From the NCBI GenBank assembly GCA_049968235.1, contig JBMFRC010000029.1:1-35103 (forward strand): a stretch of DNA of 35,103 bases, given 5' to 3'. The stretch is from Candidatus Hydrogenedens sp. (GTDB lineage: Bacteria > Hydrogenedentota > Hydrogenedentia > Hydrogenedentales > Hydrogenedentaceae). The notes under the pieces were generated by a model that saw only the letters and a list, made by a program, of their open reading frames with translations, was not told where the DNA came from and searched no databases. Both the position numbers and the translations under genes were made by a program. Shown piece by piece: positions 1,017-23,447 of this stretch; position 1 is the first letter of the stretch; every line of letters begins with the position of its first letter.

Positions 1017-2036
1017 TCAGATAATCTTTTTAACTAATTTCTCAATCTCTGTGTATTTAACGAGAGAATTATAATCAAATAAGCAGCTCATTGCTTTAGA
1101 AACTACCTCTACACCATTTTCTGTTAAAACAGCAATTGGATTTAATCCTGCCAAAACAAGAATACCTGTTCTACCATTGGGAACAGACATATCCATGATC
1201 GGTTGGTTGGGCGTCCCGAATGCAAGAATTCCCCCTAACAAACATTTCTCAACTTCTTTTGACAATTCCTTTGCTTTGTTAAGTGAAACAGAAGGTATCT
1301 CACGGAAACTAACACCGATAACTCCGTTTCCTGTCTTTGTTGCAGACCATACATTTGTCATTCGTCCCCGTATGAAAATTTCAAGTGGGTCTATTGTAGT
1401 TCCGTCATAACTTATGATTTGTGTGAAACGTTTGGGTTCCCCATCTTCTAACTCTACAAGTGTCCCAAAACGGGAAGTCATTGGAATACCATATCGGAGA
1501 AATATCCCATTCAGACTAACACTGCAAATAGTCCCAATGGCTATGTGTTTTTTAGGAACACGAAAAGAACCTAATGTCTGTTCTTCATCAACAATGGTTA
1601 ATAATTTCCCCATACCCAGATTTTTCTCATAAACTTGAGATATTTTATTAATGTATTTAGGGAAATGTTCTTTTTTCAGATAACTAATATTTAATATTAT
1701 GTTCCCCTGTTTTTTTTCAAGGTCAAAATCCATGCGAAATGCTAACTCTTCTACTTTGGAAGAAACAAAACCCACTTTATCTACCGCAAGTTCTGTTTCC
1801 AATTCTTCCCTGCCACGGTTCGTAATTTTTCTCCCTTTTCTACCTAAATTCTCCGTCCAACCCATACGGTCAGTCAGTATCAAATAATCACGAATAGCAC
1901 GGTCTGTTAATTCTATTCCTGATAATCGTAATATTTCAGAAATACGTTCACTACCAATAGGTTCTTCATTGTTTGACAAAACATAAAGTATTGCTTGAAG
2001 TTGCCTTTTTATTTTTATATCACGAAAACTTTTCAT
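1017..2036 (-). CDS. nrpR: NrpR-like transcriptional regulator: an N-terminal RNase-R-type winged helix plus a single NrpR regulatory (DUF128) domain.
   Basis: The N-terminus (ILYVLSNNEEPIGSERISEILRLSGIELTDRAIRDYLILTDRMGWTE..GRKGRKITNRGREEL) matches the NrpR winged-helix consensus (HTH_12 type). The ~340 aa size fits single-domain NrpR homologues. Two GGAA-spacer-TTCC palindromes, the NrpR operator signature, lie in its upstream intergenic region. It is transcribed divergently from gdhA. Confidence 0.55.
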   Translation of the reverse strand: MKSFRDIKIKRQLQAILYVLSNNEEPIGSERISEILRLSGIELTDRAIRDYLILTDRMGWTENLGRKGRKITNRGREELETELAVDKVGFVSSKVEELAFRMDFDLEKKQGNIILNISYLKKEHFPKYINKISQVYEKNLGMGKLLTIVDEEQTLGSFRVPKKHIAIGTICSVSLNGIFLRYGIPMTSRFGTLVELEDGEPKRFTQIISYDGTTIDPLEIFIRGRMTNVWSATKTGNGVIGVSFREIPSVSLNKAKELSKEVEKCLLGGILAFGTPNQPIMDMSVPNGRTGILVLAGLNPIAVLTENGVEVVSKAMSCLFDYNSLVKYTEIEKLVKKII

Positions 2037-2057
2037 AATAGTCTCCCTAAGACTAAA

Positions 2058-2075
2058 AGCGGAAATATTTCCGCT
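2058..2075. promoter_or_regulatory. Perfect 18-bp palindrome AGCGGAAATATTTCCGCT (GGAA-N4-TTCC core). Candidate NrpR operator in the nrpR leader, possibly autoregulatory.
   Basis: Read directly: positions 2058-2075 are self-complementary. This lies 22 bp upstream of the nrpR start codon at 2036. Its half-site CGGAA and flank TTCCGCT are shared with the second palindrome at 2178-2193. Confidence 0.45.
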
Positions 2076-2139
2076 TATTTATTTATATCATATTTTACAC
2101 AAAACAAAATATATCGTCAAAATATCTATATAATTTGAT

Positions 2140-2170
2140 TTGAAAACATTAAATTATTTGTATTATAGTA
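2140..2170 (+). promoter_or_regulatory. Putative sigma70-type promoter of gdhA: TTGAAA -35, then a TATTAT/TATAGT -10 region with a TG just upstream.
   Basis: TTGAAA is at 2140-2145. TGTATTATAGT is at 2159-2169 after a 15-19 bp spacer. The GGAA-N6-TTCC palindrome follows immediately downstream. The RBS AAGGAG at 2234-2239 sits 6 nt before the ATG at 2246. Confidence 0.3.
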
Positions 2171-2177
2171 TCCAAAT

Positions 2178-2193
2178 CGGAAGTGTGCTTCCG
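2178..2193. promoter_or_regulatory. Palindrome CGGAAGTGTGCTTCCG, an exact GGAA-N6-TTCC. Candidate NrpR operator overlapping the start region of the gdhA promoter.
   Basis: Read directly: CGGAAG (2178-2183) and CTTCCG (2188-2193) are reverse complements around a TGTG spacer. GGAA-N6-TTCC is the published NrpR operator consensus in methanogens. The site lies just 3' of the predicted -10 and ~50 bp upstream of the gdhA ATG. Confidence 0.5.
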
Positions 2194-2221: not shown

Positions 2222-3589
<1,368 letters not shown>

Positions 3590-3631: not shown

Positions 3632-3658
3632 TCAGGGGCGTAATTCATACGCCCCTGA
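3632..3658. terminator. Bidirectional intrinsic terminator between convergent gdhA and the bifunctional-nuclease gene.
   Basis: An 11-bp perfect stem TCAGGGGCGTA/TACGCCCCTGA surrounds the loop ATTCA. A T-rich tract lies on the minus-strand side (AAAATAAAAA on plus) and a weaker one on the plus side. Confidence 0.6.
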
Positions 3659-3683: not shown

Positions 3684-4184
3684 CTAAAAAGTATCATCCT
3701 CATCTTCCTCGTCATTATCCAATCCTTCGCCGTGTTCATCTTCGTGGTCTTCGTTATCTTCAACCTGAAATTCAATTTCACGACTTGCTGTATCCATAAC
3801 CTCTTCTGCTACAAAGATAGGACACCCTATCCGTATTGCAATAGCAATACTATCACTGGGACGGGCATCAATTTTTAATATCTGTTCAATTTGCCCCTCT
3901 GCGTTCTTCTGCTCAATATTCATATGCGCAAAAAAAGTGTCGTTTTCTAACTTGTATATAGTTACCGATTGTAATCGGGCTCTAAGACCAGCAAGTAAAT
4001 TACAAATTAAATCGTGAGTTAATGGACGAATAGGTTTTTCTCTCATTTGTGCCATTTGTATAGAAACCGCTTCGGGAATGCCCACTAAAATTGGCAAAAT
4101 TCTTCCATCAGATTCTAATAGCACCAGAGCTCCACCTGTATCATTGGGAGTTTTGGTTACCGCAAGTAATTTCACTTCTATCAT
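3684..4184 (-). CDS. Bifunctional nuclease (BFN/DUF151) family protein with a highly acidic C-terminal tail.
   Basis: 166 aa. Its N-terminal ~130 aa resemble the DUF151 bifunctional DNase/RNase fold (LVLLESDGRILPI.VG..EA..I...). The C-terminus is DNEDHEDEHGEGLDNDEEDEDD. Confidence 0.5.
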   Translation of the reverse strand: MIEVKLLAVTKTPNDTGGALVLLESDGRILPILVGIPEAVSIQMAQMREKPIRPLTHDLICNLLAGLRARLQSVTIYKLENDTFFAHMNIEQKNAEGQIEQILKIDARPSDSIAIAIRIGCPIFVAEEVMDTASREIEFQVEDNEDHEDEHGEGLDNDEEDEDDTF

Positions 4185-4852: not shown

Positions 4853-5659
4853 ATGAAATATTCCCAGCAATTAGAATTTTGCTTTGAAGATGCTGTAATA
4901 AATACCACAAGAGATAAACCTATTGCAAAACCTGCAATTACTATCGATGAATCTCCGAAGGATGTAAAAAAAATCGAAATATTCGTAAATAATCTTCAAA
5001 AAGACCCATGTATTAAAGAAGTGTCTATAAAAAGCATAGGAAAGAAAATAGAAATTAACATTAAATATCATTATGGGAAAGACAAGACTTATTGGGCTTA
5101 CCCTTCTCTATTAGATGCCAACAACGAAGAATTTGAAATCATTAGAAAAATCTTTACACATCAAAATATTTCTCCCGCTATCTCTATGCCTCTAATAAAA
5201 AAACATTTAATTTTTCGTCCCTGTCATTGGAAATTAAACTGGACACCCGAAGGAAAACATTACAATTTAGAAAATTATTTCAATGAACTTAATCGCAAAT
5301 ATTTCATGGGTAAATTAAAAAACAAGATTTATTGGTCTAAAAGGAAATTTTTATCAAATAGAATAAGGAAACAATATCGATTTTGTCTGGGTTTTTTCTG
5401 TAAAGGTTGTTTGCAAATATTTATTAGCCCATTACTCGATACCGATAAAATACCCAATATAATATTAGAGGTAATTGTATATCACGAAATGGTCCATGCA
5501 TACCTTTTTAATGACTTTCCCCACAGTGATAAATCCCATGGTAAAAAATTTAAACAACTGTATTCCCTGCATCCCCATGTAATAGAAGTAGAAAAGATTC
5601 TTAAAACTCCTGGAATTTATAAAATATTAAGAAAAGAAGCCACTCAAAAATCTTTATAA
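4853..5659 (+). CDS. SprT-like zinc metallopeptidase family protein.
   Basis: 268 aa. It has a C-terminal HExxH motif (VIVYHEMVHAYL) followed by a downstream HGKKFKQL. This is the SprT-like arrangement (HEmcH ... HG..F). The N-terminal ~150 aa are of unknown function. Confidence 0.5.
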   Translation: MKYSQQLEFCFEDAVINTTRDKPIAKPAITIDESPKDVKKIEIFVNNLQKDPCIKEVSIKSIGKKIEINIKYHYGKDKTYWAYPSLLDANNEEFEIIRKIFTHQNISPAISMPLIKKHLIFRPCHWKLNWTPEGKHYNLENYFNELNRKYFMGKLKNKIYWSKRKFLSNRIRKQYRFCLGFFCKGCLQIFISPLLDTDKIPNIILEVIVYHEMVHAYLFNDFPHSDKSHGKKFKQLYSLHPHVIEVEKILKTPGIYKILRKEATQKSL

Positions 5660-22873: not shown

Positions 22874-23290
22874 ATGGTGTTTCAGAAAAATCATGTGGTA
22901 GAAACGAAGAAATATGGTCAGATGACAGACCTTACACCATGGGTGCAACTGGCGGTAGAGGAGTCCCAGTTAAAAAATGGAATAGTGAATGTATTTAATG
23001 TTGGAAGCACAGCATGTATCGGAACAATAGAATTTGAGCCCGGATTGATGGAGGATTTACCGGAACAACTCTCGCGTTTATTTCCCCCGGGACGCCATTA
23101 TGCCCACGAACAAACATGGCATGATGGGAATGGACATTCCCATTTGCAGGCAAGTTTAATAGGTCCCGGAATTACGGTTCCGTTCAAAGATAAAAAACTA
23201 ATTTTAGGAGTATGGCAACAAATATTCCATCTGGAATGTGATATTAAACCTCGAAAAAGAGATATTATGATTACAGTGATGGGTGAGTAA
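22874..23290 (+). CDS. YjbQ/UPF0047 family protein (secondary thiamine-phosphate synthase-like).
   Basis: 138 aa. Family motifs are present: TWHDGNGHSHLQASLIGPGITVPFKD.KLILGVWQQIFHLECD. An RBS GGAAAGGAAAGGGA lies upstream. Confidence 0.8.
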   Translation: MVFQKNHVVETKKYGQMTDLTPWVQLAVEESQLKNGIVNVFNVGSTACIGTIEFEPGLMEDLPEQLSRLFPPGRHYAHEQTWHDGNGHSHLQASLIGPGITVPFKDKKLILGVWQQIFHLECDIKPRKRDIMITVMGE

Positions 23291-23372: not shown

Positions 23373-23447
23373 GCCCCGATAGTTCAGTGGATAGAACAAA
23401 TCCCTCCTAAGGATTAGACCCGCGTTCGATTCGCGGTCGGGGCGCCA
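23373..23447 (+). tRNA. tRNA-Arg, anticodon CCT (reads AGG), with a genome-encoded CCA.
   Basis: A manual cloverleaf fold works. The acceptor stem GCCCCGA/TCGGGGC has 7 perfect pairs. The D stem is GTTC/GAAC. The anticodon stem AATCC/GGATT carries the loop CTCCTAA, giving anticodon CCT. The T stem CCGCG/CGCGG carries the loop TTCGATT. The discriminator is G and the 3' end is CCA. A T8 run follows at 23448-23455. Confidence 0.85.

Follow-up and report, generated by a model that had tools for sequence, protein, structure and literature searches.

NrpR is the textbook nitrogen repressor of methanogens, among which the operator motif reported for Methanosarcina mazei differs from GGAA-N6-TTCC. 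The latter sequence is the NrpR operator consensus of Methanococcus (PMC2723118), and the 2-oxoglutarate-dependent release of methanogen NrpR from its operator is established (PMC11957540; PMC4902934). In the literature that we searched, we found no description of the function, operators or regulons of bacterial NrpR proteins, although an earlier mention in key subscription papers is possible. Here we analyse a contig of 35,103 nucleotides from the bacterium Candidatus Hydrogenedens sp. (JBMFRC010000029.1, positions 1–35,103; hereafter the window), in which an nrpR homologue and gdhA are divergent and the intergenic region between them contains two related inverted repeats, site A and site B. 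We conclude that the two sites are probably DNA operators of the NrpR homologue encoded at 1017–2036.

The nrpR gene lies on the minus strand and encodes a protein of 339 amino acids with an N-terminal winged helix and a single NrpR regulatory domain (NRD). The Pfam family HTH_12 (PF08461) was matched at residues 15–79 (E = 7e-12, above the gathering score) and PF01995 (DUF128) at residues 88–325, where the full model was covered (E = 1.3e-79). This NRD also aligned to the solved NRD of MJ0159 (PDB 3NEK; E = 5e-29). As both defining domains are present, the window protein is a member of the NrpR family; NCBIfam models gave no name for it. The gdhA gene (2246–3589, plus strand) encodes an NADP-specific glutamate dehydrogenase of 447 amino acids. 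Its product has the Pfam ELFV dehydrogenase domains and scored 776 bits with the NCBIfam equivalog NF006929, against a cut-off of 536. An earlier sequence-only reading of this DNA had named the two genes in the same way, and both names stand. We presume that NrpR binds sites A and B and that gdhA is the target gene.

Site A has a 14-bp candidate operator core, CGGAAATATTTCCG (2060–2073), that consists of two abutting 7-bp half-sites and was found both by reading the sequence and in the list of inverted repeats. The core lies within AGCGGAAATATTTCCGCT at 2058–2075, which grows to a 20-bp perfect palindrome, AAGCGGAAAT/ATTTCCGCTT, at 2057–2076. The A of the nrpR start codon (2036, minus strand) is at a distance of 22 bp from the first base of the 18-bp repeat. 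Site B (2178–2193) is a 16-bp candidate operator read from the sequence, CGGAAG-TGTG-CTTCCG, i.e. CGGAAGTGTGCTTCCG. The distance to the first repeat is 102 bp, and the gdhA ATG (2246) follows after 52 bp. The 6-bp arms of site B, CGGAAG/CTTCCG, are perfect; since its 4-nt TGTG centre is non-palindromic, however, site B is an inverted repeat and not a perfect palindrome. The sequence-only reading had located both repeats correctly, but its description of them as two perfect palindromes applies to the first, which is even longer than was described, and not to the second.

The sequence CGGAA/TTCCG is common to the two repeats and each runs on as ...TTCCGCT, giving a direct repeat. Site B (GGAAGTGTGCTTCC) is an exact fit to GGAA-N6-TTCC, with the same half-sites as site A placed 2 bp further apart. 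Site A corresponds to GGAA-N4-TTCC and so misses the methanogen operator spacing. The pattern CGGAA-N2-8-TTCCG was matched three times in the window, where 0.10 matches were expected, and none of 100 shuffles reached three. Two of these matches are inside the 209-bp nrpR–gdhA intergenic region; the third, an exact CGGAA-N6-TTCCG at 23167, is inside a UPF0047 open reading frame (ORF). The looser GGAA-N4-8-TTCC was rejected as a window-wide statistic (13 matches versus 5.1 expected), being too loose and having its other matches mostly within ORFs (e.g. 23127 and 23168).

To compare the intergenic region across relatives, a check that the sequence-only reading had proposed, we aligned the window with six loci whose NrpR proteins are 79–91% identical to that of the window (L081, L001, L083, L002, L003 and L085). 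Both sites were conserved islands in this alignment, which has a mean column identity of 69%. For the site A core, CGGAAAT(A/T)TTTCCG, 13 of the 14 columns are invariant in the seven aligned sequences. The second island comprises site B, the gdhA −10 block next to it and a −35 block that reads TTGAAA/TTGCAA. Site B itself takes the form CGG[A/C]A[G/T]....CTTCCGAT and keeps its 16-bp spacing in all seven sequences. In L002 and L003 it reads CGGAAG....CTGCCG, so that GGAA and GGCA half-sites are mixed in one operator-type site. Three loci of a sister clade (L004, L014 and L087; NrpR 59–61% identical) retain the synteny of dCMP-deaminase, BFN-nuclease and nrpR. These three have no gdhA between the BFN gene and nrpR and no CGGAA or CGGCA boxes, suggesting a joint gain or loss of gdhA and the two operators.

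More distant relatives were then compared. A homologue search returned 700 matches to bacterial NrpR homologues, and at least 588 relatives were confirmed in a species-representative genome collection. When an NrpR alignment was used to scan genomes, one for each species, 80 loci were obtained. In these, the nrpR–gdhA intergenic regions contain a recurrent 14-bp palindrome, with the sequence CGGCAAnnTTGCCG in the majority of lineages and CGGAAATATTTCCG in the genus Hydrogenedens. A 16-bp version with the same arms is found towards the partner gene; AACCGGCAAAATTGCCGGTT and AACCGGCTGGTATATGCCGGTT, from one genome, are an example of such a pair. When CGGMA-Nx-TKCCG was counted over 678 kb for x = 0 to 12, the numbers of matches were 11, 4, 5, 13, 58, 6, 17, 11, 10, 4, 18, 8 and 13, with the peak at x = 4.

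The preference for two spacings is also seen when pairs of half-sites (two CGG[A/C]AA 6-mers that match at 11 or more of 12 positions) are scored in the 450 bp before nrpR and compared with the remaining 608 kb. Sites with a gap of 2 (CGG[A/C]AA-NN-TT[T/G]CCG) were present at 1.72 per kb upstream of nrpR and at 0.040 per kb elsewhere, making them ∼44-fold denser there. For a gap of 4, the densities were 0.59 and 0.018 per kb, respectively. In total, 61 high-scoring sites upstream of nrpR have a gap of 2 and 21 have a gap of 4, whereas gaps of 5–7 gave none across the 80 loci. A search of the 9-kb flanks of these loci for additional regulon members showed a few isolated high-scoring sites, but ORF calls in the GC-rich bins were too ambiguous for targets to be named. 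The sequence-only reading would have been undermined by palindromes that were equally frequent elsewhere; instead, the density of the sites upstream of nrpR exceeds that in the 608 kb of flanking sequence ∼30–45-fold.

Counts per locus gave the same picture. An A-type site was present in 53 of 79 loci (0.23 expected from shuffles) and a B-type site in 41 of 79 (3.4 expected). Within 33 nrpR–gdhA intergenic regions, CGG-N8-CCG occurred in 29 and CGG-N10-CCG in 26 (∼2.7 expected for the latter), whereas each of the other CGG/CCG spacings from N2 to N16 was seen in 1–9 regions (shuffle mean 2.6–2.9). The site logos, nGGCAA-WW-TTGCCn for A and CGGCAAT-NN-ATTGCCn for B, reduce to a single 7-bp half-site that is either abutting or 2 bp apart. 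The N4 spacing of site A had been thought atypical, and a possible sign of a different binding geometry for a single-domain NrpR. The survey reverses the first point, as the N4 (14-bp) class is the commonest and best conserved one beside bacterial single-NRD nrpR genes. The second was not borne out: the N4 class co-occurs with the N6 class and is therefore no mark of a geometry peculiar to the single-domain protein. Judged from this co-occurrence in sequence, the same NrpR protein apparently uses both spacings.

The order of the two sites relative to the genes is also conserved. Site A is closer to nrpR than site B in 36 of the 37 loci that have both, and in most loci the A box precedes the nrpR start by 30–165 bp. 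The divergent neighbour of nrpR is a close gdhA homologue (at least 60% identity) in 32 of the 80 loci; in two more, such a homologue lies downstream of nrpR on the same strand. In 21 others (L033, L038, L040–L042, L045, L046, L049, L050, L054–L056, L058, L062, L064, L067, L069, L070, L073, L074 and L079) the divergent partner is a Glu_synthase-domain protein of ∼530 amino acids (PF01645, partial domain), which has no NCBIfam name. Sites A and B are each present in 18 of these 21 loci. At L037, the single such case, the partner is a glutamine-dependent NAD synthase.

Two further arrangements were seen. L076 carries two divergent nrpR paralogues (151–2772), one preceded at 39 bp by a perfect 14-bp box, CGGCAAATTTGCCG, and the other at ∼30 bp by a perfect 16-bp box, CGGCAACCATTTGCCG. 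In two bins labelled Spirochaetales (L060 and L068), gdhA is downstream of nrpR on the same strand, and both boxes lie between the nrpR stop codon and gdhA. In these the A box directly follows the stop codon, and A and B are 157 bp apart, both upstream of gdhA. In a Spirochaetales-labelled bin, site B is 15 nt past a TTGACA-17-TAAATT promoter of gdhA. The positions across loci thus suggest that B is consistently a promoter-proximal candidate operator of the target, and that A precedes nrpR in most cases, with exceptions. At L068, the 14-bp box is also central in a 36-bp perfect palindrome, TATTTCTTTAACGGCAATATTGCCGTTAAAGAAATA (4999–5034), which comes directly after the nrpR stop and is without a T-run.

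We also asked where the sites lie relative to predicted promoters. A sigma-70-type gdhA promoter is predicted at 2140–2169 on the plus strand, with TTGAAA (2140–2145), an 18-bp spacer and TATAGT (2164–2169), matching the consensus at 10 of 12 positions. On the minus strand, an nrpR promoter is predicted at 2120–2092, with TTGACG (2120–2115), a 17-bp spacer and TAAAAT (2097–2092), likewise with 10 of 12 matches. A proximal extended −10 of nrpR, TGATATAAA (2090–2082, minus strand), was predicted from a direct reading of the sequence; at the corresponding position, the hexamer of L001 is a perfect TATAAT. Site B begins 8 bp past the gdhA −10-like hexamer TATAGT. The site A core begins 8 bp past the proximal TATAAA hexamer of nrpR, or 18 bp past TAAAAT. 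Each site, with a −10-like hexamer just before it, thus coincides with a predicted transcription start or closely follows it, which is where steric repressors classically bind. Of 42 loci, about half have a −10-like hexamer whose end is no more than ∼14 bp upstream of B, with a cluster at 6–11 bp; for A sites the hexamer positions are bimodal.

These features suggest the following mechanism. A dimer of the winged-helix, single-NRD protein would read two 7-bp half-sites, which are CGGAAAT or CGGAAG in the window and CGGCAAT in most other lineages, and which abut in the 14-bp site A or stand 2 bp apart in the 16-bp site B. As site B begins 8 bp past the gdhA −10, NrpR bound there would cover the transcription start and block gdhA. 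Likewise, NrpR bound to site A, 8 bp (or 18 bp) past an nrpR −10-like hexamer, would repress its own gene. The combination of autoregulation and target regulation put forward in the sequence-only reading gains support from this layout, with one site on each gene's side. The conserved GGC/GCC triplets have a spacing of 9 bp in A and of 11 bp in B, values that straddle one helical turn. The AT-rich centre of A, also conserved, could be deformable, and flexible winged helix–turn–helix arms could fit both spacings.

If the window protein behaves like methanogen NrpR, it would leave its operators in response to 2-oxoglutarate. An increase in this metabolite would then switch on the NADP-dependent glutamate dehydrogenase, which would aminate 2-oxoglutarate to glutamate and so lower its level again. 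More repressor would be made at the same time, giving a substrate-induced homeostatic loop in which autorepression acts as negative feedback on the regulator. Both of the common partner genes, gdhA and the Glu_synthase-domain gene, encode enzymes that convert 2-oxoglutarate to glutamate, which is consistent with release by 2-oxoglutarate, although indirectly.

Among the closest described systems is NrpR of Methanococcus maripaludis, which acts on nif and glnA. The two repressors belong to the same family, with a winged helix followed by NRD, and site B has the same GGAA-N6-TTCC sequence; in both cases the targets belong to nitrogen assimilation and the operators come in pairs. The 2-oxoglutarate effector logic, shown in methanogens, is presumed for the window system. 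There are also several differences. The window host is bacterial, with predicted sigma-70-type promoters in place of a TATA box and B recognition element (BRE), and its regulator has one NRD rather than two. The target is gdhA, or the Glu_synthase-domain gene in other lineages, rather than nif or glnA. The bacterial loci add the shorter 14-bp spacing class, which is dominant in bacteria, and in the window the regulator's own predicted promoter bears a candidate site. Finally, the window sites are ∼120 bp apart with one per promoter, whereas those of M. maripaludis are in tandem at one promoter.

The domain content of the window protein, a DNA-binding region and one NRD, is instead that of Methanosarcina NrpRI (NrpR1), and JGI uses the name ‘global nitrogen regulator NrpRI’ for some bacterial homologues. 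In Methanosarcina, however, NrpRI is partnered by NrpRII, which lacks the helix–turn–helix, and we saw no NrpRII gene adjoining the bacterial loci. The arrangement of the locus resembles divergent modules of the TetR/tetA type, in having divergent genes with two palindromic operators in a short intergenic region, one per promoter. Repression of the target together with autorepression, relieved by a small molecule, is common to such modules and would apply in the window as well. In contrast to those modules, the window system has a regulator from an unrelated protein family, and its operators differ in spacing (14 versus 16 bp), a difference that is conserved across phyla.

Several observations weigh against sites A and B being operators of NrpR in the manner proposed. 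It would be unusual for one protein to use two spacings that differ by 2 bp (∼68° of twist). The sister clade has nrpR without gdhA or boxes; the boxes therefore track the pair of nrpR and its target and not nrpR alone. At L060 and L068 the A box lies past the nrpR stop codon, so that A is not always autoregulatory. Methanogen nrpR has been reported as not nitrogen-regulated (PMC9765008), and autoregulation would thus be a departure from the model system. Promoter-like matches in the AT-rich intergenic region are no commoner than in shuffles (4 versus 3.4 expected), and the transcription starts are predicted only. Finally, many of the loci come from related metagenome-assembled genomes (MAGs), so that the locus counts overstate the number of independent events.

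Among the alternatives, the two sites could form one looped repression complex, with a tetramer bridging A and B, rather than act as independent promoter-specific operators. Such looping is possible because the A/B pair is kept or lost as a unit: the pair stays together even where nrpR and gdhA are co-directional (L060 and L068), and both boxes were lost jointly in the sister clade. There is also a methanogen precedent for paired sites, in that the title of Lie et al. 2005, as cited, refers to two operators at Methanococcus nif. However, A and B are separated, centre to centre, by anything between 38 and 316 bp, and these distances show no helical periodicity (Rayleigh p > 0.2, periods of 9.5–12 bp); in the window each site has its own adjacent −10-like hexamer. 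The cooperativity or looping raised in the sequence-only reading thus found no support; as a loop is compatible with the result of the phasing test, we regard it as unlikely but still a realistic arrangement.

A second alternative is that the boxes are operators of another transcription factor for glutamate-forming genes, and that NrpR is merely a neighbour. The sister clade lends some weight to this, as it retains nrpR yet has lost gdhA and the boxes, which therefore follow the target as much as nrpR. On the other hand, site B fits the experimentally defined NrpR consensus, and the boxes accompany nrpR with two unrelated partners, gdhA and the Glu_synthase-domain gene. They also occur between the two divergent nrpR paralogues of L076, and in most loci the A box keeps its place 30–165 bp before the nrpR start. 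We therefore consider a different factor very unlikely, and NrpR the probable binder.

Site A might also act as RNA. A transcript from the distal promoter would contain an 8-bp leader hairpin followed by UUUU, which could serve as an attenuator, terminator or stabilizer. A scan for terminator-like sequences did report AAGCGGAAATATTTCCGCTT with a T-run on both strands at site A. The nrpR leader, in which a second hairpin covers the Shine–Dalgarno sequence, has a predicted fold of −16.1 kcal/mol (z = −3.5), and the changes from CGGAAA/TTTCCG to CGGCAA/TTGCCG keep the pairing. In the close relatives, however, conservation is confined to the 14-bp core: both the T-run and the outer stem (AAG/CTT) are present in the window and L081 only, and are lost in L001, L002, L003, L083 and L085. 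Across phyla the logos show that the half-site sequence itself is kept, beyond mere pairing. The same half-sites also form site B, and B-type sites are on the other gene's side, in positions that are untranscribed or differently transcribed. Many A boxes would leave a loop of just 2–4 nt, and no Rfam family reached threshold in a scan of 1900–2400. A role for site A as RNA is thus a little less probable even than a different DNA-binding factor.

Two RNA candidates at this position were rejected. A match to the streptococcal csRNA family of Rfam (1978–2081, plus strand) scored 32.4 bits against a gathering cut-off of 57 (E = 0.019); the site A hairpin and T-run account for this match, which was taken as chance. 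Site A does not combine a GC-rich hairpin with a conserved U-run and was accordingly not accepted as an intrinsic terminator or leader attenuator. The second leader hairpin, UAGUCUUAGGGAGACUA, would be formed by a small inverted repeat, TAGTCT-CCCTA-AGACTA (2039–2055, minus strand), and would enclose the nrpR Shine–Dalgarno sequence (GGGAG). Only L081, the 91% identical relative, retains this repeat (with wobble pairs), which is probably not part of the operator system.

That the repeats are chance palindromes or sigma-54 (−24/−12) promoter elements of nitrogen genes has next to no likelihood: the GGCA...TTGC half-sites do resemble TGGCAC-N5-TTGC, and the looser GGAA-N4-8-TTCC is only mildly enriched in the window, but the sigma-54 spacing corresponds to a gap of 5, at which there are no high-scoring sites upstream of nrpR (61 and 21 at gaps 2 and 4), the GG and GC dinucleotides of site B are spaced differently from those of sigma-54 promoters, and both the window excess (3 versus 0.10) and the massive conservation across loci effectively refute this origin.

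Taking sites A and B as operators of NrpR, the locus and its relatives give a simple operator model, with one 7-bp half-site and two fixed spacings, and a regulon whose core is likely to be enzymes that aminate 2-oxoglutarate. They provide a view, open to experimental test, of a regulator that has until now been studied in methanogens alone. If confirmed, it would add a nitrogen/carbon-balance regulator for uncultured phyla in which control of the NtrC, GlnR or NtcA type is not established. It would also offer a natural system for examining how one winged-helix dimer reads two half-site spacings.

We tentatively suggest a broader reading, which we think could easily prove wrong, in which bacterial single-NRD NrpR is a widespread, undescribed 2-oxoglutarate-sensing module for glutamate-forming enzymes (NADP-dependent glutamate dehydrogenase or the Glu_synthase-domain protein) and its two spacings are functional. 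The module would range over the Hydrogenedentota and bins labelled Planctomycetota, Verrucomicrobiota, Desulfobacterota, Spirochaetota, Nitrospirota and others. If so, the spacings might set an affinity hierarchy, with target and regulator derepressed at different 2-oxoglutarate levels. Alternatively, they might suit different ligand or oligomeric states of NrpR, so that the effector would redistribute the repressor between sites rather than simply release it.

The choice between GGAA and GGCA half-sites was compared with the recognition helix of NrpR. This reads ...TDRAIRDYL... in the window clade and ...SERAVRNYL... in most of the GGCA lineages. However, two loci with GGAA sites, L041 and L042, have a different helix, so that there is no clean specificity rule. 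The taxonomic assignment of some loci is also of note. MAGs labelled ‘uncultured Nitrospirales’ or ‘Candidatus Bathyarchaeia archaeon’ (L003, L005–L008, L014, L021, L025 and L028) have an nrpR–gdhA organization near-identical to that of Hydrogenedentota bins, and the NrpR of L003 is 81% identical to the Hydrogenedentota protein. The labels of such bins look unreliable.

Pairs of half-sites with a 5-bp gap (CGGCAA-N5-TTGCCG-like) were found 29 times in the flanking DNA of the surveyed loci, which puts them among the commonest classes there, comparable with a gap of 8 (30 times), and none was upstream of nrpR. These may be sigma-54 −24/−12 promoters.

Elsewhere in the window we searched for further nitrogen genes bearing operators; Pfam annotation of the other window ORFs revealed no glnA, amtB, glnB or GOGAT. 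The UPF0047 (YjbQ-like) ORF at 22874–23290 contains two repeats, GGAATGGACATTCC (23127–23140) and CGGAATTACGGTTCCG (23167–23182), which are 41 bp apart and ∼200 bp upstream of a tRNA-Arg(CCT) gene (23373–23447). Although the window expectation is only 0.10, these are probably chance matches under coding constraint. Lastly, a GC-rich hairpin, TCAGGGGCG-N9-CGCCCCTGA (3632–3658), is located between gdhA (ending at 3589) and a convergent BFN-domain gene (ending at 3684), and is likely to be a bidirectional terminator.

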